From: Methanobacteriota archaeon
GTDB taxonomy: Archaea > Thermoplasmatota > Thermoplasmata > SG8-5
Direction of reading: 5' to 3'
Length of the DNA: 46,715 nucleotides
Assembly (NCBI GenBank): GCA_030670795.1
Contig: DAOVAY010000001.1
Location: 1-46,715 of the forward strand
Shown here: positions 4,358 through 38,000 of the stretch, piece by piece
Position numbering within the stretch: position 1 is the first letter of the stretch
Layout: each line of letters starts with the position of its first letter
Made by a program: the position numbers and the translations under genes
Notes under the pieces: generated by a model
Database searches by the model: none
What the model saw: only the letters and a program-made list of their open reading frames with translations
Told to the model about the DNA's origin: nothing

Positions 4358-4423
4358 TGGTTTCACCTTTAATCGTTGGTGTATACAACCCCCCATATAT
4401 TTAGTTTTTATTTTTACAGTTGA

Positions 4424-4680
4424 TGGTCGAGAACGCCCAAGCTCTTTAGGCTTGGGATGGATCGACCAGTATCTTGGTAAAGAAGGGAATCCGCCGTATG
4501 CTCATCGATAAGTAGTCACATAAACACGAAGCCAAGATACTGGCTTCGGGAATTTGAGCATATGGCTGTTTAAATGTGAACTTCCAGGCCAGGTTCACAA
4601 CGCCAAGTCGTTTCGCAAAACACGTAGTGGTTTGCGTTAAGACGAGCTGTGGCTCGTCTGTTTATGGCCTGGTAGTTTAC
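4424..4680 (+). ncRNA. Candidate structured RNA / repeat element, copy 1 (longest)
   Basis: One of three homologous intergenic copies. Helices: H1 4424-4430/4462-4468, H2 4436-4442/4450-4456, H3 4493-4503/4556-4566, H4 4527-4534/4541-4548, H5 4576-4590/4666-4680, H6 4641-4647/4652-4658. G.U pairs are only possible on the + strand transcript. Confidence 0.55.
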
Positions 4681-4756
4681 AGAGAACAAAGGAAAAAGTT
4701 ATAATACAGTTTCATTATATCGGTTTTGTAGCTACATTGTAGTTGGGAGGCCTTTG

Positions 4757-4897
4757 ATGGAAGACACACCTTCTAAATTTGAGGTTTACGGTCAGGAGAT
4801 GATCGAGAAGCACGTGAAAAAGTCTGGCAACAGCGGCAGGATATACCTTCCACCTGATTGGATAGGCAAGAAGGTCAAGATAATAAGGGTGGAGTGA
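4757..4897 (+). CDS. 46-aa AbrB/SpoVT-like miniprotein resembling the archaeal DUF2080 ('transposase-associated') family; not in the supplied ORF track
   Basis: My translation: MEDTPSKFEVYGQEMIEKHVKKSGNSGRIYLPPDWIGKKVKIIRVE*. GGGAGG lies 7 nt upstream of the ATG. The stop is 7 nt before the next gene. The G-x-S-x-R-I-Y-L-P..WIGKKV pattern is typical of swapped-hairpin AbrB-like proteins. Confidence 0.55.
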   Translation: MEDTPSKFEVYGQEMIEKHVKKSGNSGRIYLPPDWIGKKVKIIRVE

Positions 4898-21462: not shown

Positions 21463-22416
21463 CTATTTTTTATACTCTGGCAGCTCGACCCCCCTAATCA
21501 GGGAGACGATAGTTGAATTGTATGGTGTTGGTATTCCATGAATCTTGCCGTACTCTACTATCTTGCCGTTGAGAAATCCAATCTCTGTTTGGCTCCCCCG
21601 TTCCACATCCACATGCATGGAGGTCTTGTGATGTCCTGCGTTGTCCAGATAATCCATGCAATGTTCCAGAAATCCAGAGTCATAATGAATGCCAACCGCC
21701 TTGGCAACCCCAATTCCCTCACGCAATAAAGCCTCTACAAGTTCCCTGGTCTCTCCAAATTCCATCATCTGTTTCATTGTTCTTCGTGTGAGAGCACAGA
21801 CAGGACTCAGGGCAGCGTTGAGTATGACCTTCTCCCATTCGTATTTCTTGATTTCCGGGGTGAAAGCAGTCTCCAGGCCCGCTTTAGTGATGACCTCTGC
21901 CAGGTCTTTGGCCTTTTCTTCTGCCATTGGATCAATCATGCCGATGTAATTCGGAGCATTGAAGAATGACATACCGATCTTTCCATTGTCCATGAGGTTT
22001 CCGGCATAGTTGACGACAATCCTCAGTACATTCTCCTTTCCAAAGACGCCCGCAATGACCTCCTCGGTGTCCATGCCGTTCTGGAGGCTGATAAAGGTTG
22101 TGTCAGGTTTCACAACCTTGGCAATCTCCGGTATGACCCTCTCCAAAAGGGATGCTTTGACAGAAACGAATATCGTGTTCACATCTTTATTCTGCAATTC
22201 GTCGATGGAATAGCAGATGTTCTCCTGAGGAAATCTCACGTTCAACTCTCTAAAGCCAGTTAGTGTGAGACCACTCCTTTTTATCTCATCCAAGTGATCT
22301 TCAAGTATATCCACAAGGACAACTTCGTGCCCTGCGTTCGCAAGGTGGGATGCCATGATACCACCCACAGGTCCTACACCAACAACTCCAAATTTATGAT
22401 CATCCACCATATTCAA
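21463..22416 (-). CDS. PanE/ApbA-family 2-dehydropantoate / D-2-hydroxyacid reductase
   Basis: 317 aa. FGVVGVGPVGG N-terminal Rossmann motif and a ketopantoate-reductase-type C-terminal domain (...SMHVDVERGSQTEIGFLNG). Its start overlaps the upstream gene's stop. Confidence 0.8.
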   Translation of the reverse strand: MNMVDDHKFGVVGVGPVGGIMASHLANAGHEVVLVDILEDHLDEIKRSGLTLTGFRELNVRFPQENICYSIDELQNKDVNTIFVSVKASLLERVIPEIAKVVKPDTTFISLQNGMDTEEVIAGVFGKENVLRIVVNYAGNLMDNGKIGMSFFNAPNYIGMIDPMAEEKAKDLAEVITKAGLETAFTPEIKKYEWEKVILNAALSPVCALTRRTMKQMMEFGETRELVEALLREGIGVAKAVGIHYDSGFLEHCMDYLDNAGHHKTSMHVDVERGSQTEIGFLNGKIVEYGKIHGIPTPYNSTIVSLIRGVELPEYKK

Positions 22417-23657
22417 TCCACCTCTAACTGTTCTATGAATGCTTCGAAATTCGTCTTTGTTTGTTCGTCAGAAAGACATCTCAGGTCGTTCAAATCTCCG
22501 TTAATGACGAGAGCGGGTATGCCAGTCTCTTCTTCAAGCCGTTGTGGCATGCCGTAGCGATTGTTGGAGTTGTTCGGACAGGTTTTTGCATCGTGATATA
22601 TGACACCGTCAATTTTGAAGAAATCAATCATCTCTTTCAAATATTTCTCCTTTGCCTCATCCGAGCGGACGATGAACAATTCGGTATATGCTTTTGCCAT
22701 GCTTTTGAACGGGTCAGAAGCATCAAAATCGGAGAATATCCAGCTGTTGCAATACGTGGATGCGACAATGCACGCCTTCCTGCCCGCAAAGAATTCGGAA
22801 TGGTCCCGCAATCTGCCCCAGACAGGCATGCCTTCCCAAAAAAATCTGAACTGTTCGCCATCTACCGCGCCTTCCTGTTCTCGAATTTTTTCTTCCAATT
22901 CTGAGAGTAATAATTTATAGTAATCCACCGCCTGCTGCGTCCCCCTCAATACCACTGCCGGTCCCATGTGAATTGTACTGTCAAAGAAAGTAAGCGGGGA
23001 AGGTGCAGCTACCGCCGTGTCCAACACATTCTTCCAGAGGTCAGAGCACTCCCGCGACATAGACAACACTCTTTTTAACTCGTTCATGTCAAACTTGTTG
23101 CCGGATATTTTCTCCAAAGGCTCGATCATCTCTTCCATCTGGTGCGCTATGGATTGAACATAGGTGTCTGTAACGTCATTGATCCCTCTGTGTGTGTGAA
23201 TCCCGACCATCGGAGCGTCGAACTCCGATGCAAACCACCCGAACCAGTCCTGTACATCCCTGCACTGGTTGGTGTTGAAAACCAATACATCCGGTTTGGG
23301 CACATTCTTTATTTCAGGATAAGCCCTGGACAATGGCGTGACCTTCTTCAAATACGCACCGATGTCTGCCGTGAGGTATGAACAAATGTCAGGTGAATAC
23401 CCTATAGCATTGGCATAAGGTATCAAGTCCGTGGCCATCCTCGTGACACCCAGCATGGCAGAATGATTTTCAGGAAAATAAACTGAAAAACCCATGCTCC
23501 TCAAAATTTCGGCAGGCCCCACACTAGAACACCACGCGACCTTTTTTTCACTGCTTTTTGCGGCATGGTCCAGCTGATAATAATACTCAGCCATGATCTG
23601 CTTCATTTCTTTAGTTGATTTGATTTCCTTTCGAGCCGACTTTATCTCCCCAGCCAT
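22413..23657 (-). CDS. Stand-alone 2-hydroxyacyl-CoA dehydratase / BcrC-HgdB-family protein (double-cubane-cluster-protein-like arrangement)
   Basis: 414 aa with family-typical sequence KKVAWCSSVGPAEILRSMGFSVYFPENH and conserved Cys residues. No second B/C-type subunit gene is adjacent. Confidence 0.8.
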   Translation of the reverse strand: MAGEIKSARKEIKSTKEMKQIMAEYYYQLDHAAKSSEKKVAWCSSVGPAEILRSMGFSVYFPENHSAMLGVTRMATDLIPYANAIGYSPDICSYLTADIGAYLKKVTPLSRAYPEIKNVPKPDVLVFNTNQCRDVQDWFGWFASEFDAPMVGIHTHRGINDVTDTYVQSIAHQMEEMIEPLEKISGNKFDMNELKRVLSMSRECSDLWKNVLDTAVAAPSPLTFFDSTIHMGPAVVLRGTQQAVDYYKLLLSELEEKIREQEGAVDGEQFRFFWEGMPVWGRLRDHSEFFAGRKACIVASTYCNSWIFSDFDASDPFKSMAKAYTELFIVRSDEAKEKYLKEMIDFFKIDGVIYHDAKTCPNNSNNRYGMPQRLEEETGIPALVINGDLNDLRCLSDEQTKTNFEAFIEQLEVD

Positions 23658-23791
23658 CTTATCTCCTTCAATTATTTGAGTACAGTGGAATAAATCATAA
23701 GTTGCATCTTATTGTTCATATCCACAAATATAGCAACCAGGAATTATCATGGAACCTATTAATCATTTTGGTGTTTTGATATTATTGTCAA

Positions 23792-24015
23792 AGGTCAAGA
23801 ACACTCAGGTCTTTAGGCCTGAGATGAATTGACCTGAATATCATTAAAAGGAGGAGACCGCCGTATGCGCATCAATACCTATTGAAGGAACTCGAAGTCA
23901 TCAACTTCGAGAAATCGCGCATATGGCCGCTTAAAAGTGAACTTCCAGGCCAGGATAGAAACGCCAGGTTGTTAAGACGAGCTGTGGCTCGTCTGTTTAT
24001 GGCCAGGTAGTTTAC
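23792..24015 (+). ncRNA. Candidate structured RNA / repeat element, copy 2
   Basis: Helices: H1 23792-23798/23829-23835, H2 23804-23811/23816-23823, H3 23860-23870/23917-23927, H4 23891-23898/23904-23911, H5 23937-23951/24001-24015, H6 23976-23982/23987-23993. Confidence 0.55.
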
Positions 24016-24103
24016 GCCACCCATACTAATGATTAAATATTGACAGGCACTTTACCTCAGATAGTGGGCCATACCCAGTTATAATCCCTCTAAAGGTGAA
24101 GTT

Positions 24104-24895
24104 ATGAAAAGTGAGGAATATTTCGCAGGCATCGATGTCGGGACATCGTACGTGAAAACCGCGATCATAGACGATAAAAACGATATCATAGGCTCCTTCA
24201 TAGAACGTACTGGTGCAGATATAAAGTCATCAATTAATGTCGCCTTTGAAGGGGCCATTGCTGAGGCCGGAATACCCAGATCAATGATAAGGAATGTTAC
24301 TGCAACAGGATTTGGAAAGAGCCAGGCACCTGTTGCCGACACGGTAAAAACAGAGATAAGCTGCCATGCCAAAGGTGCTTTTCATCATTTTCCAGGAAAA
24401 ATCACGATCATCGATATCGGAGGCCAGGACACAAAAATCATAAAAGTCGACGAACATGGGAAAAGATTGGGTTTCAAGATGAACAGAAAGTGTGCCGCAG
24501 GGACAGGAGCGTTCCTGGAAGAGATCGCAGCCAGACTTAATTTATCAATGGACGAGATGAACACTCTTGCAGTCAAGTCTGACAAAGAAGCCGCTTTGGG
24601 GAGTTTCTGTACAGTTTTTGCAATCACAGAGGTGATCACACGCGTTAAAGCGGGAGAGAAAGTGGAAAACATGGTCAGGGGCGCATTTGAATCGGTTGCC
24701 AGAAGGGTTATCGAGATGGATGTGCTGGATGGCCAAGTGGTTATGACTGGCGGCGTGGTGGCACACAACGACATAATTGCCGACATTCTGGGTGCACTTA
24801 TTGAAAACAAGATCTCGATTCCACCACAACCCCAACTGACTGGCGCTTTCGGAGCCGCGCTGTTTGCGAGAGAAGGTCAAGAACCAGAAAAATAG
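24104..24895 (+). CDS. HgdC/BcrAD-family ATPase (dehydratase activase / reductase component)
   Basis: 263 aa. Motifs GIDVGTSYVKTAII, DIGGQDTKII, NRKCAAGTGAFLE. This is the third paralog of the family in the window. Confidence 0.9.
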   Translation: MKSEEYFAGIDVGTSYVKTAIIDDKNDIIGSFIERTGADIKSSINVAFEGAIAEAGIPRSMIRNVTATGFGKSQAPVADTVKTEISCHAKGAFHHFPGKITIIDIGGQDTKIIKVDEHGKRLGFKMNRKCAAGTGAFLEEIAARLNLSMDEMNTLAVKSDKEAALGSFCTVFAITEVITRVKAGEKVENMVRGAFESVARRVIEMDVLDGQVVMTGGVVAHNDIIADILGALIENKISIPPQPQLTGAFGAALFAREGQEPEK

Positions 24896-24963: not shown

Positions 24964-26535
24964 ATGACTTGGTTAAACATTGGGGAAAAGGTCAGGGTCA
25001 ATGCTGCCAAGTATCCTGATAAACTCGCCTTGAAAGATGCACGAGGTCAACTGACTTTCAAAGAGTATGACGAAAGGACCAACATGCTGGCCAACGGCTT
25101 CCTCAAGCAAGGTCTGGAAAAAGGCGACAAAATAGCGGTTTTGTCCAATAATTCATTGGAATTCATGGAGATTTATGTCGCTGCAGCCAAAGCCGGTATC
25201 ATAGTCGTTCCGCTGAACTTTCGATTGCATCCCGACGACCTGACATATATCATAAAAAATTCAGATTCGAAAATGCTACTCGTAGAGTCCCGTTTTCGGG
25301 AACCAACCAGAGAAATCTGGGAAAAAGCCGAGGACGCGGAGCTCGACAATGTCAGGCGGGTTCTGATAGCGGACGAACCAATAGACGGTTGGGAATATTA
25401 TGAGGATATAATAAGAACTGGGGAAAACATATATCCCTCTGTAAAAACAGAACCGGAGGACACCTGGGTCATCTTATACACATCTGGTACGACTGGCAGG
25501 CCCAAAGGAGCCATCCGCTCTCATCGCTCCTATGTGGCATTTTTCCTGGTCAATCAGGCAGAGTTTTCCTTTAATCCGCAAGATTACGGTATGATATTGA
25601 TGCCGTTGTCGCATGTCAACTCGACGTTCTATTCCTTCGTCTTCACTTACCTCGGTGCACCGGTCTATATTCACCGCGAGTATAATTTCAATCCGGAAGA
25701 AGCACTGCAAATTATCAACCGTGAGAAGATAACCTTCACCTCGATGATTCCTACACATTTTAATCTCATTTTGACGCTTCCGGAAGAGGTCAAGAAGAAA
25801 TACGACCTCAATTCTATACGGGCCCTTCTCACATCATCCGCTCCGGCCACCAGACAAATGAAATTAGATGTAATAGAGTTATTTAAAGAGGCCCAACTCT
25901 ACGAGGGGTATGGCTCAACCGAGGCCGGCCTCGTCACCATTCTCAGACCAGAGGACCAAATGAGTAAATTGGGGTCAATAGGCAAAGAATGCATCGGAAC
26001 CGATTGCATCAAGCTCTTGGATGAGGCCGGCGATCCCGTACCCGTTGGTGAAGTAGGCGAGCTCTACTCGCGGGGTCCCCAGATGTTCGACAGATACTAC
26101 AAATTACCTGAAAAGACCAAAGAAGCGTTCATCGGGCAATATTTCAGCGCGGGGGACATGGCCAAAAAGGACGAGGACGGCTTTTACTATCTCGTCGACA
26201 GGAAGGCCAATATGATAATTACCGGGGGTGAGCACGTCTTCCCCTCCGAAGTTGAAAAGGTTGTTAAAAGACACCCCATGGTCAGGGACTGTGCAATTGT
26301 CGGTTTGCAGGATGCCAAGTGGGGCGAGGCCGTTACAGCGGTCTGTGTACTTTGTGATGGAGGAACACCATCAGACGAATTGATTGAAGACATCAGGCAG
26401 TTTTGCGAAGACAAGGTGGCCAGATTTAAAAAACCGAAACGTGTTTTGTTCATAAGTTCCGAGGAAATGCCGAAAACCGCGTCCGGAAAGATTGTCCATC
26501 GCCTTTTGCGAGAGAGATTCGACCAGAAGGAATAA
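24964..26535 (+). CDS. AMP-forming acyl-CoA synthetase/ligase (ANL superfamily)
   Basis: 523 aa. YTSGTTGRPKGA (A3 motif), GYGSTE, and C-terminal SGKI. Confidence 0.9.
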   Translation: MTWLNIGEKVRVNAAKYPDKLALKDARGQLTFKEYDERTNMLANGFLKQGLEKGDKIAVLSNNSLEFMEIYVAAAKAGIIVVPLNFRLHPDDLTYIIKNSDSKMLLVESRFREPTREIWEKAEDAELDNVRRVLIADEPIDGWEYYEDIIRTGENIYPSVKTEPEDTWVILYTSGTTGRPKGAIRSHRSYVAFFLVNQAEFSFNPQDYGMILMPLSHVNSTFYSFVFTYLGAPVYIHREYNFNPEEALQIINREKITFTSMIPTHFNLILTLPEEVKKKYDLNSIRALLTSSAPATRQMKLDVIELFKEAQLYEGYGSTEAGLVTILRPEDQMSKLGSIGKECIGTDCIKLLDEAGDPVPVGEVGELYSRGPQMFDRYYKLPEKTKEAFIGQYFSAGDMAKKDEDGFYYLVDRKANMIITGGEHVFPSEVEKVVKRHPMVRDCAIVGLQDAKWGEAVTAVCVLCDGGTPSDELIEDIRQFCEDKVARFKKPKRVLFISSEEMPKTASGKIVHRLLRERFDQKE

Positions 26536-33944: not shown

Positions 33945-34718
33945 GTGGATGCCTTGCCGAAAATAGGAAGTGCACTTAAAAAAGCAGTCGAAATCAGATC
34001 TGAGACAGATGATGACTCCAAAACAAAAAGACGACCTGCCAGCGTTCTCATGAATCACAACCGCAGGGCGGTTTTTCAGGCACTGTGTTTCAGGCCGTGC
34101 CTAACCGTTTCCGCGATGACCTCCGCCCTATCATTATCAAGGGCGACGATTCTATGGCACCTGAAAACCCTGATGAAGGCCGACTACGTCGACGGAATAT
34201 CGGTCTATCGTAAAGACAGATATTTACCTGCTGGCTTGATTACAAGCGAAGACGACATGATTGTCTTCGCCCTCTTGAACGACGAGAAGTGCGGTGAGCT
34301 GTATCGGGCTGTAGTGGACAACCCTGGCAAGGACGCGAAAACGCTGGCCCGCATCACCGATAATCGTTCAATAAAATCATCTTTAAGGAGTCTCGAGGAC
34401 ACGAAATTGATAACCGCCGTCCGCGACGGGCGACACCTCCGTTACTTTCCGACAGACAAGGTAGAACAGCTGGCTCAATCTGAGCGCAGGAAAACCCTCG
34501 CGTTCCAAAACAACCTCCTGAAACGGCTGAAGGAAGAATATTTACATCCCACTCTCAGAGGTATAAAAGGCAGGGGATTGTTAATCAATCTCGAGGCAAT
34601 CGATGAGGACTCTTTCGTGTCAAATGCACGAAATGTTATTTCGGGAAGCGAACCGACCCGAAATAAGGCCAGCATCGAAATTCCTTATGACATCGTCGAT
34701 GTCTCGCTGTCGTCCTAA
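33945..34718 (+). CDS. Winged-helix (ArsR/TrmB-like) DNA-binding protein
   Basis: NRRAVFQALCFRPCLTVSAMTSALSLSRATILWHLKTLMKADYV is an HTH-like segment. The GTG start at 33945 is uncertain; an internal ATG (MNHNRR) is possible. Confidence 0.55.
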   Translation: MDALPKIGSALKKAVEIRSETDDDSKTKRRPASVLMNHNRRAVFQALCFRPCLTVSAMTSALSLSRATILWHLKTLMKADYVDGISVYRKDRYLPAGLITSEDDMIVFALLNDEKCGELYRAVVDNPGKDAKTLARITDNRSIKSSLRSLEDTKLITAVRDGRHLRYFPTDKVEQLAQSERRKTLAFQNNLLKRLKEEYLHPTLRGIKGRGLLINLEAIDEDSFVSNARNVISGSEPTRNKASIEIPYDIVDVSLSS

Positions 34719-34723
34719 ATTTA

Positions 34724-34931
34724 CTGTCGTCCCATAAACACCCTGTCCTTCAGGGCAGGGATAATGTAAGACGACAGCCAGAGGTGAGGCCGCCGTATGC
34801 TCATCGATAATCATGCATCGAAACTCAAAGCCAATAACTTCTGGTTTTGAGTAATCGAGCATATGGCTGCTTGAATGTAAACTTTCAGGCCAGGATAACA
34901 ACGCACGATCATTTATGGCCTAGTAGTTTAC
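34724..34931 (+). ncRNA. Candidate structured RNA / repeat element, copy 3 (shortest; lacks H6)
   Basis: Helices: H1 34724-34731/34770-34777, H2 34741-34748/34753-34760, H3 34792-34802/34857-34867, H4 34823-34833/34842-34852, H5 34877-34891/34917-34931 (with a 3-nt internal loop). Confidence 0.5.
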
Positions 34932-35057
34932 ATTTTTTTGTAACATAATATACTCAATCAGAGACTACATTGCTCAATTTCTTGTATAGAATATTGATAT
35001 ACTAACTTGTAGATAACTATACATAATAAAAAAGGGGCATGTGTAAAACGGAGTACC

Positions 35058-38000
35058 ATGACGCCTACAAAGAAACGTTTTACCGAGGATTTCATCTCCA
35101 AGTGGAGTAAAGCATCCAGTCCGGAGGAGGTTAACCGGACAGAAGAACTTTTGAAGCGGCAGGAGGCTCTTTTAAGAAAGGACCCGGACAATGCCAGGCT
35201 CTGGATGGCCTGCGGTGAAACCCTCCAGATACTCGGAAAGCACAGCGAGGCCCTGATAGCCTTCTTGAAGGCCAGGGAGTTGGAGCCGACCCTGCCCGGT
35301 CTGAAATTGTCTATTTCAAATGCCCAAGCGCGCGCCGGAAAGCCTGTCGAGGCGGTATCTGGCTATCTTTTGAGTTTACAGGAAGTTTGTGAGTCCATAG
35401 ACAGCCCCCACCTTCATAAACTCAAGGTCAGGGAAAGCGTCGACGACATACTGAAACAGATGTCCCGCGAGCTGTCTTCCGATCCCGAGCGTCAGAGAAA
35501 GGCACAGGCAGTCAACATCCTGACGGGAGTGCCGGGAATCGGCCACCTGAAGGCCAAGGTGCTTTTCGATGCCGGTTTCAGGTCAATCAAGGATTTGAAC
35601 GAGGCCAGTGTCGACGAGCTGGCCGAGGTCGAGGGCATAGGGCTCAAGACAGCCCAGAAGATTAAAATCGTGGTGACATTCCAGGAGAAGGCTGAGGGCA
35701 GACTGGAAGACATGCCGGGCGTCATAGGCCTGGACACCGACGAGAAAGAGGAAATGGAATGCCCCTTGTGTAAGACGATTTTGAGCGCGAGCTCCGCTGT
35801 CTGTTACGAGTGCGGCATGAAGTTCAAAGAGGCCGGCGATACAGAGGACGAGGACGACCTTCATGGACTGCTGGCCGAGTTCGACAGCATTTTGGCAGCA
35901 AAACCAGACGCCATCGCCACCTGGAATCAGAAAGGCGGCGTACTGACCAAGCTGGAAAGATATGAAGAAGCCATCAACGCATTCAACGAAGTTACTGTTA
36001 TCGACCCCAATTATCCAGGCGTCTGGAACATGAAGGCCGAGGTATTCACGAAGATGGGGGAACATCAGAAGGCCGCTTCTTGCTTCAAGCGGGCAATGGA
36101 GTTGGGCGTCGCCACGGCGGTATCGGAGGCGGCGGGTGAAGAGGTCGAGGAACTTCTTCATGAACTGGACACATTCGAGGACGATTCGGAAATAGACAAA
36201 GAAGTCTGGTTGTCCGAGCAGAGGGCGCTCCAGAAAGAGCTTCTGGACCTGGCAGAGGTCGACACGGACGATATCGACCTAGAACTGCCGTCACTGGACA
36301 AAGAAGAGGCGGAACTGCTCGACATCATCATGAAGGACGAGAAAACAGCGGCCGAGTCAGTTGAGGTTGAGATACCCGACATTGACGAAGAGGACATCAA
36401 GAAAATCGAGGAGATCACGAGGGCGCTGGATGAGGAGCGCGTCCCGCTGGCGCGCGTTGAGGAGGAGGTTACCCCAGAGGAGGTTGCGGCCATCGAAGCG
36501 GTCACGAAACCACTGGTGGGCAAGGCCCCGGAGCCAAAAGACCGGGGCATGACCAACGGGCTCGGGCGAGGCATGACTAACGGCCTCGCTAGAAAGGGGA
36601 TGATCAACGGCACCGGGCGCACGAACGGCCTGACGAATGGCGTGGGCAGAACCAATGGTATGACTAACGACCTCACTAACGGTCTGGGCAGGACAAATGG
36701 CTTGACCAATGGTGTTGGGCGTACAAATGGTCTCACCAACGGCCTGACGAATGGCCTGGGCAGGACAAATGGCTTGACCAACGGTGTTGGGCGTACAAAT
36801 GGTCTCACCAACGGCCTGACTAACGGCCTTACAAACGGAGTAACGAACGGTTTGACCAACGGCCTCAGGGCGCTCAAGTCCGGGATGACCAACGGGCTGA
36901 CGAACGGAACCGGCCTGACAAATGGTCTCGGCGGCAGACGATTCAGCAGGGAAGCCAGACGCAACAAATGGAAGTTGTACGTGATACCCTTGGTAACCAT
37001 GCTTATGCTGCTGGTTCCGATGGTTTCGACGACTGCCCCGCAACAAGAGCAGTTTCCGATCAACATAGACGGCGATTTCGCTGACTGGTCCAACGTGCAG
37101 TCGATTTCGTCGAACCCAGTGACGGGCACTTTCAACGCCAACGTTGACGTAACGAGCTGCGCGATGGAGAATAATCTGGAGAGATACCTCTCGTTCTGTG
37201 TCGATGTTGTGGGTATAATGTTCGCTGGCGAGCCGGTAACTCAAGAAGGTTATGTCGACGTCGTGCACATCCTCATAGACACCGACAACAACGACATGAC
37301 TGGCTATTCTGTTCGCGGCATCGGGGCGAACTACATGCTGAGCATAAGCGGATGGAACGGAGGAATCGTTTCTTCCTCGATTTCGGCGTATTCCGACATG
37401 ACAAACCAGGACAACTTCAACGGCTTTATATCGATGACGAACATCCGCGCGGAAATCAACGGCCAGCATCTCGAAACCCAGGTGGCGTGGTCTGCCATGG
37501 ACATTCTGGAGCCGACCGGCGTGACGGCAGTTGTTCACACCCAATCATGGAACGGGCACCACGACTTCTCTGACAGTTTCGTGACCAACGCCCTGACTAT
37601 AGCCAGCGCAACTCAAACCAGCCGGGCATCCGAGACGATGTCCGGGGCAAACCAACCGCTTCTTGATATCGGCATTACCGCGGTAAACGCGGACGTAGAT
37701 ATGGCGAACATTAGAGTTTCGTTGGTGGGCACATTCCAGCAAACCGACGTCGACGCCCTGCGCCTGATTGATTCCGCAGGGGCGGCGGTCTCTCAAATCA
37801 CCAATCCATCGCAAAACACAACATTGAGCATGGTAGGCACCTCAATTCCGAGAGGCCAGACATCCACATTCACTCTTCAAGCTGACATTTCCTCAAACGC
37901 GATTTTGGGCAGAACCATCGGAGCAAGGATCGAAAAGGCAGGCGACATCTCGCTCTTGAACGGCAGCGCGAGTCTGGTTACCATCGAAACCGCCAACGAC

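Follow-up and report, generated by a model that had tools for sequence, protein, structure and literature searches.

A probable non-autonomous IS200/IS605-family element with a covarying structured core in the intergenic DNA of uncultured Thermoplasmata

A folded element lies in the spacer between two divergent operons

We analysed a 46,715-nt stretch (positions 1-46,715 of contig DAOVAY010000001.1, assembly GCA_030670795.1; hereafter the window) from an uncultured archaeon of the Thermoplasmata, in which an initial annotation had recognised three copies of a structured element. The present analysis centred on the second of these, copy 2, which spans 23786-24015 on the + strand (230 nt) and occupies an inter-operon spacer. 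An HGD-D dehydratase-family gene on the - strand lies to its left, and an operon for a BcrAD/BadFG ATPase and a CoA ligase lies to its right on the + strand, starting 88 nt beyond the end of copy 2 and in the same orientation. Pfam searches returned the flanking genes as they had been described.

22413-23657, - strand: HGD-D family gene (2-hydroxyglutaryl-CoA dehydratase D-component-like; Pfam PF06050, E = 2e-66), outside the element
24104-24895, + strand: BcrAD/BadFG-family ATPase (activase; Pfam PF01869, E = 2e-48), outside the element
24964-26535, + strand: AMP-binding CoA ligase, after the activase gene (Pfam PF00501, E = 1e-84)

The minimum free energy (MFE) fold of copy 2 reached -89.4 kcal/mol, with a z score of -6.7 against dinucleotide shuffles, and was divided into three modules: a hairpin domain (P0) at the left end, a three-way junction (module A) and a hairpin (B) at the right end. 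The parts of copy 2 are as follows.

23782-23785, + strand: 5' flank TTAT, a TTAC-like tetranucleotide and candidate insertion target or left cleavage site (from the in-register flank listing)
23786-23835, + strand: left end (LE) with hairpin domain P0 (from the MFE fold, covariation and the same domain in an autonomous element)
23792-23798 paired with 23829-23835, + strand: outer stem of P0, with an inner hairpin at 23804-23823 (MFE fold)
23836-23857, + strand: purine/A-rich linker TGAATATCATTAAAAGGAGGAGA, unpaired in the fold, variable in sequence and A/G-rich in all copies
23858-23929, + strand: module A, three-way junction (covariance model R1, 82.9 bits for copy 2)
23860-23870 paired with 23917-23927, + strand: helix P1 of module A (GCCGTATGCGC / GCGCATATGGC), with one G.U pair
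23873-23884 and 23891-23911, + strand: hairpins P2 and P3 of module A
23937-24015, + strand: right end (RE), hairpin B, with basal stem GTGAACT : AGTTTAC and a conserved T.T mismatch
23974-23994, + strand: extra internal hairpin within B of copy 2
24006-24015, + strand: element terminus GGTAGTTTAC, a sharp 3' boundary in all copies

P1 forms the 11-bp closing helix of module A, in which GCCGTATGC.. pairs with ..GCATATGGC, the G.U pair included. Two internal-loop motifs of P0, GAGAAC (AAGAAC in copy 2) and GATGAAT, are conserved and unpaired. The family consensus of the B basal stem is GTRAACT : AGTTTAC around an invariant T.T mismatch, and the loop of B tolerates inserts of 3 to >100 nt. Conservation was found to begin 6 nt earlier than previously annotated; the 3' ends are as annotated. 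The distances from element end to gene start held for all three copies (4680 to 4757, 24015 to 24104 and 34931 to 35058), and every AT-rich string quoted from between the elements and the genes is present in the sequence.

Two further candidate functions were considered and rejected. Coding by a short open reading frame (ORF) in module A, with its ATG within P1, was discarded because the ORF is not conserved between copies, and a ribozyme was discarded because the hammerhead-like strings (CUGAUGA) between A and B lack both conservation and an Rfam match.

The fold is maintained by covariation across the family

The other two copies in the window have the same strand and the same kind of flank, and copy 3 follows the ORF at 33945-34718, beginning 6 nt past its stop codon.

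4418-4680, + strand: copy 1, full length (LE + A + RE), with a long insert in the B loop; preceded by TTTAC
34725-34931, + strand: copy 3, with divergent P0, module A and a short B; preceded by TTTAC

The three window copies aligned with a mean column identity of 74%, and their helices were kept by two-sided, compensatory changes, which together with the fold statistics of copy 2 bears out the structured element reported at this place. Among 76 copies of A+B from many genomes, 95.7% of the cells in 30 base pairs were paired, against ~34% with the partners slid, and both sides had changed in 25 of the 30 pairs. The left-end domain behaved in the same way: 90.5% of cells were paired in 31 copies of P0, against at most 44% when slid, and 11 of 15 pairs had changed on both sides. 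Many of the pairs are G.U, which assigns the fold to the element strand. Rfam searches of the window, copy 2 and the tRNA-linked loci, at gathering and at permissive thresholds, matched only tRNAs.

Both ends of full-length copies recur in an autonomous IS200-type unit

An autonomous IS200-type unit of ~712 nt was found once each in two relatives, G010 (L070 1275-1986) and G020 (L069); the two units are 86% identical over 714 nt, whereas their surroundings are unrelated. On the left the unit carries the P0 domain (GGGAGAGAAC-hairpin-GATGAATCGACC), and its right end, GTAAAC-G-CCAGTCCC-TTTA-GGGGCTGG-TA-GTTTAC, has the architecture of hairpin B and the same terminus as the family. Full-length copies thus share both ends with the autonomous unit. 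The sole ORF of the unit encodes a protein of 158 aa (Y1_Tnp, PF01797, E = 1e-28) that aligns to the IS200-type transposases 2EC2 and 2F4F (Sulfolobus), ISDra2 2XM3 and IS608 2A6M, and its HUH motif and catalytic Tyr region align with those of the solved transposases. Module A is present in every non-autonomous copy, and the covariance model R1 gave no match to it in the autonomous unit.

Copies lack target duplications, and full-length copies follow a candidate TTAC-like target

No flanking direct repeats were detected at p <= 0.02 for 56 of the 59 copies in the window's own genome (G000). Two of the three exceptions are tRNA-Leu-linked copies, and the third, on C17, is an internal motif match with no duplication of the flank. 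Terminal inverted repeats are likewise lacking, the ends GGTCRAGAAC... and ...GGTAGTTTAC not being inverted repeats. The absence of terminal inverted repeats and of a fixed-length target duplication ruled out a miniature inverted-repeat transposable element (MITE) of a DDE transposon.

The flanks of 43 full-length copies from several genomes were then listed in register and counted. Left ends of one type (type i, TG..) are preceded by TTAC in 17 of ~27 copies and by one-base variants (TTAT, TCAC, TAAC) in the others, and left ends of a second type (type ii), those of the autonomous units included, follow TTAG. Two tandem arrangements (G000 C47:17697 and G010 L080) take their TTAC flank from the GTTTAC end of the upstream copy. 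TTAC is also the target of IS608, which inserts without duplication.

Differences in occupancy between genomes point to past mobility. Orthologous spacers are filled in G001 and empty in G000 at C17, and filled in G003 and empty in G000 at C90. When the joined flanks of seven G000 loci were searched in G001 and G002, a copy in the same place was recovered at C46:5146 in G002 only; both flanks were recovered in both genomes for three of the seven, the others being less well tested with one flank. At the G001 site corresponding to C32:11312 the sequence is continuous and leaves no space for a copy. Nested and tandem copies also exist, and other small repeats have inserted into copies.

Copies are intergenic and randomly oriented throughout the genome

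G000 is a 1.26-Mb metagenome-assembled genome (MAG), 83.5% complete. Searching it by nhmmer with a hidden Markov model built from the three window copies identified 58 loci, and the covariance model R1, which covers A+B, gave ~59 full core matches. About 15 of these copies are full length (P0+A+B), and most of the others (~40) consist of A+B alone, without the P0 left end and without the TTAC flank. On gene calls from a crude ORF-based model (87% coding), 58 of 59 copies are intergenic. Convergent gaps hold 12 copies, divergent gaps 13 and tandem gaps 27, as expected from how much intergenic sequence falls in each class (chi-square p = 0.92); the tandem set comprises 11 sense and 16 antisense copies (p = 0.44).

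The initial annotation had proposed that copies are oriented like the gene downstream of them and are parked just upstream of promoters, and it had named random orientation in a genome-wide census beforehand as a refuting result. In that census the downstream gene was co-oriented for 24 copies and not co-oriented for 28, and the gap classes followed intergenic length, so that both orientation and intergenic class are random. The pattern seen upstream of promoters is thus due to chance, and three co-oriented copies out of three in one window are an unremarkable coincidence. Other parts of the earlier proposal gained support: the ~59 copies, the unrelated neighbours, the lack of an orientation rule and the lack of an Rfam match agree with an independent unit that is neither a 5' leader for the mRNA downstream nor a metabolite riboswitch. 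The neighbours share no functional theme, and no protein family recurred beside the copies other than spurious ORFs that run through the repeat itself.

These results bear directly on the idea that copy 2 regulates in cis, as a 5' leader or riboswitch, either the activase/CoA-ligase operon or the dehydratase operon on its other side. Its position 88 nt upstream of the + strand operon, its shared orientation and its strong structure would suit such a role, which nevertheless has to be reconciled with 59 copies beside unrelated neighbours in random orientation (24/52 co-oriented), with TATA-like sequences between copy 2 and the gene, and with the lack of an Rfam match. At the orthologous locus of G004 (L102), moreover, a copy lies at the matching left junction and is followed by a different gene. 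Homology between the window and L102 takes in the HGD-D gene and the adjoining spacer as far as the element, and it ends with the element's 3' boundary, beyond which G004 (L102 1269 onward) carries a gene other than that of the window (24016 onward); a synteny break therefore coincides with the repeat at the copy 2 locus. We consider a leader or riboswitch hardly credible, and the element is better annotated as a repeat or mobile-element copy than as a regulator of acyl-CoA operons.

The divergent spacer also contains the motif GGAACCTATTAAT at 23751-23763, a TATA-like box on the - strand that is kept in the orthologous spacer of G004. This box probably serves as the HGD-D operon promoter and, because the upstream motif is conserved in G004, that promoter probably lies to the left of the element. 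An exact-protein contig look-up with the downstream ATPase, made for an insertion-free strain, returned a sole contig, which breaks inside the element.

At six loci of G000 (C24:1355, C17:44302, C84:1352, C47:17900, C92:17929 and C85:1291) the TAA stop of a convergent gene lies inside the terminal GTTTAC of the element, which reads GTAAAC on the opposite strand. An insertion 3' of a TTAC that overlaps a 'G TAA' stop would regenerate the stop, and such insertions would therefore be neutral.

A gene-less IS200/IS605-type element is the probable explanation

We put at about 0.78 the probability that copy 2 is a non-autonomous, gene-less element of the IS200/IS605 family, that is, a palindrome-associated transposable element (PATE). 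PATEs resemble MITEs. The initial annotation had not recognised the unit as one of this kind. This identification rests on the shared ends, the absence of target duplication, the flank motif, the presence/absence differences, the census and the covariation. The family as a whole is undescribed, would be an addition to a class of mobile element that is already known, and occurs in two families of uncultured Thermoplasmata.

By analogy with the 'peel-and-paste' model of IS608 and ISDra2, a Y1 (HUH) transposase supplied in trans would recognise the subterminal hairpins on one single-stranded DNA strand and excise the element as a circle, which would re-insert 3' of a TTAC-like tetranucleotide without target duplication; the flanks make TTAC a candidate for the true target. 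Insertions would survive in intergenic DNA only, in either orientation, which would explain why copy 2 sits in a divergent spacer, beyond both likely promoters. Like IS608, ISDra2 and PATEs, the family has subterminal hairpins on the same strand, no terminal inverted repeats and no target duplication, and the TTAC-like tetranucleotide before its full-length copies is a candidate counterpart of the TTAC target of IS608. As in IS200/IS605 elements, a small Y1 HUH transposase is encoded by an autonomous relative with the same ends, and there are many non-autonomous copies for each autonomous one. The family differs from known IS200/IS605 elements in its additional covarying three-way junction (module A), in the lack of a recognisable left-end hairpin in most G000 copies, in a right-end basal stem of 6-7 bp between the terminal GTTTAC and a GTAAAC upstream of it, and in its host, an uncultured Thermoplasmata lineage, the family being known here from sequence.

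In G000 the family looks old and is probably immobile, because no pair of copies is more than 89% identical, the assembly contains no Y1 gene and the flank of copy 2 is TTAT rather than TTAC.

Several observations weigh against the assignment to IS200/IS605. A cognate transposase (>=85% identity, with matching ends) was detected in just 2 of the 16 element-bearing genomes, and no Y1 transposase gene was found in the G000 assembly, which is 83.5% complete; repeats are often lost from MAGs. Spacers are too diverged between genera for base-level alignment of empty sites, and the TTAC target is drawn from flank statistics and the two tandem cases. The short A+B copies differ in presence between genera, and their mobilisation is not accounted for. 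Two tRNA-Leu-linked copies lie between 12-13-nt repeats derived from the 3' end of the tRNA, an arrangement that is not typical of IS200/IS605 elements. Finally, a plain transposon model has no need of module A, which the autonomous element lacks, and neutral decay of dead transposon copies would not give the scarcity of stem substitutions and the retention of the fold that we observed in A+B.

Stem substitutions suggest selection on the A+B core

Private substitutions were five times rarer in stem columns than in unpaired consensus columns of the core (2.3% vs 11.9%), and 53 of the 75 changes within stems keep the pairing. Different genera also carry copies that match in site and orientation: the G000 copy on C25 and its counterpart in G003, C46:5146 and its counterpart in G002, and copy 2 and its counterpart in G004, which lies beside the orthologous HGD-D gene. 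Across these comparisons, identity is 67-87% in paired columns and 35-65% in unpaired ones; of the 30 base pairs, 2-9 show compensatory changes and 2-4 are broken. In the G003 copy P0 has decayed and A+B is intact. These patterns suggest that selection acts on the A+B fold in place, either as RNA or as single-stranded DNA. The copies sampled are a subset, and those at the same site could also have arisen by re-insertion at the same spacer or by gene conversion. Our best guess from the sequence comparisons is that module A has an extra function kept in place by selection.

A+B units also lie directly after the tRNA-Leu(TAG) and tRNA-Leu(CAG) genes of family f1.

G000 C11:22984-23225 and C21:700-945: tRNA-Leu-linked units
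G001 L130 60-520 and L137 420-815: tRNA-Leu-linked units
G002 L052 1280-1640 and L038 1060-1640: tRNA-Leu-linked units

Each of these units is followed by a copy of the last 11-16 nt of the tRNA in question, in which a C/T difference tracks the tRNA, and in G001 the repeat extends >70 nt into the trailer. A TATA-like TTTATA stands ~25 nt before each tRNA-Leu-linked core. An unrelated 85-nt structured unit occurs within the tRNA-Leu array at the CAG locus of G001 and G002 and at the TAG locus of G002. Campbell-type integration, tandem duplication and a processing signal are candidate origins of the arrangement. It was not found in families f4, f2 or f3, and an order-wide ancestral gene was rejected since the units are confined to f1.

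A rival reading takes A+B to be first of all a host-functional structured RNA under selection at every locus, either a small RNA gene family or a processing or stability element, with the IS200-type ends as its vehicle or with the copies exapted after insertion. The retention of the fold in same-site copies (C25/G003, C46:5146/G002, copy 2/G004 and the tRNA-Leu loci), the excess of pairing-preserving and the deficit of stem substitutions, the decay of P0 in G003 beside an intact A+B, the G.U pairs that put the fold on the element strand and the TATA-like sequence upstream of the tRNA-Leu-linked cores all speak for such an RNA. Most copies, however, show neither a consistent upstream TATA box nor a downstream oligo-T by eye, and their random orientation to neighbouring genes argues against a role inside mRNAs. 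A strand-specific fold would be expected just as much if a Y1 transposase acts on the element as single-stranded DNA. Same-site copies, which sometimes fall into different subfamilies, could stem from re-insertion or gene conversion, and most of the copies in G000 have no counterpart in the sister genus. On balance we regard a host-functional RNA as rather unlikely. If module A were functional, as an RNA or as a DNA signal independent of the transposase, it would show how transposon derivatives without genes gain cargo and persist in archaea.

Neither an omega RNA nor a REPIN-type population fits the family closely

A core that abuts the right end of a gene-less element could also be an omega-RNA-like guide scaffold, which would take the adjacent 3' flank as guide and serve a transposon-related nuclease in trans. 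The ~120-nt multi-helix scaffold indeed ends exactly at the right-end boundary, and TnpB acts in trans on omega RNAs that many PATEs encode (PMC10055086). The PATEs of ISGst in Geobacillus stearothermophilus are likewise gene-less, with a structured segment of ~120 nt abutting the right end (PMC10055086); our family differs from them in having no detectable TnpB in the element-bearing genomes tested and a partner that carries tnpA only. In a search of G000 and 16 relatives, the TnpB zinc-ribbon/RuvC-C domain PF07282 was not found in G000 or in the 13 element-bearing relatives among them, and the same search was positive in 8 of 14 control genomes. The lack of tnpB in the autonomous partner, of an Rfam match to an omega RNA or HEARO and of any protein family that recurs beside the copies adds to this, and we judge a guide scaffold very improbable. 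The resemblance to HEARO, the omega RNA of IscB (RF02033), lies in multiple covarying copies with sharp boundaries, often without an adjacent ORF. The HEARO scaffold lies at the left end, has a 5' guide and is tied to IscB. In our family, by contrast, the core is at the right end, has no Rfam match and has no protein recurring beside it (IscB was not searched by name).

Another low-copy Y1 gene (L064-L068, L071-L075) is present in nearly all genomes of the order, element-free families included. Its product is 31-35% identical to the family-matching transposase. Within genus g5 the flanks of the gene are homologous, and the gene may represent a domesticated Y1. No family copy was detected by R1 or nhmmer within 1.5 kb of these genes.

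A single-copy domesticated Y1 transposase that rarely copies a long-lived, vertically inherited population of repeats would make the family an archaeal counterpart of the REPIN-RAYT system. A REPIN consists of two inverted REP palindromes, ~100 bp in all, and REPs flank the single-copy RAYT gene (PMC3116915; bioRxiv 10.1101/2021.07.10.451892). REPINs derive from IS200-like ends and have been reported as not detected in archaea (bioRxiv 10.1101/2021.07.10.451892). Both systems comprise extragenic, IS200-derived hairpin populations that are lineage-restricted, with persistent copies; our family looks vertically inherited, ranges from 1 to >90 copies per genome and keeps copies at the same site across genera, and the low-copy Y1 gene, nearly order-wide and syntenic within g5, could be seen as the counterpart of RAYT. 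The comparison falters at several points, since the sequence of that gene is distant from the end-matching transposase, it occurs in element-free families too and it is not flanked by family copies. The matching transposase resides instead in an ordinary IS200-type unit at non-syntenic places, and the elements are asymmetric, 120-260 nt long and without paired inverted REP palindromes. We therefore hold a REPIN-RAYT counterpart to be improbable. Long-lived REPIN-type populations have so far been reported in bacteria only.

A broader proposal, which we offer tentatively and with the odds against it, is that the A+B core is a functional structured nucleic acid held at fixed loci in TnpB-less archaea. 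It might then be a new class of small RNA that rides on, or was exapted from, IS200-type ends, or a first archaeal REPIN-like analogue, and the tRNA-Leu units might be domesticated members.

The family is confined to two families of one order and is itself a target of other repeats

Of the order's 21 genomes, 16 contained the family according to R1, and these belong to families f1 (5 of 5 genomes) and f4 (11 of 12). It was not found by R1 in the four genomes of f2 and f3, in one f4 genome or in 19 genomes from other families of the class. A pattern scan of a metagenome collection gave two matches, both by chance in unrelated sequence, and a pattern scan of a genome collection added no genomes beyond the relatives already in the set. 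Element-bearing genomes hold from 1 to at least 94 copies each; these counts are lower bounds, 150 candidates having been scored per genome. Density reaches about one copy per 20 kb. Many copies in the high-copy genomes G004, G010 and G018 lie at contig ends, as expected of near-identical repeats.

Two small repeats were found inserted into family copies. The first, of ~88 nt (TTAATCAAACATTTAGC...ACGCAACTACAA, with a hairpin end), lies in P0 or in the B loop. The second, of 85 nt, lies at the same P1 position, after GAGCATAT, in four different copies, and either is site-specific for the family or belongs to a composite that was itself copied.

G000 C51:2367-2454, C92:18185-18271, C16:7451-7535 and C9:1642-1693: ~88-nt repeat, four BLAST copies, 76-100% identical
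G000 C92:17995-18079, C85:1141-1225, C51:20-104 and C39:7129-7213: 85-nt repeat in P1, 95-100% identical

A nested composite, with one core unit inside the P3 region of another, was observed three times in the same genome (C84:1073-1352, C46:11835-12090 and C42:7785-7950).

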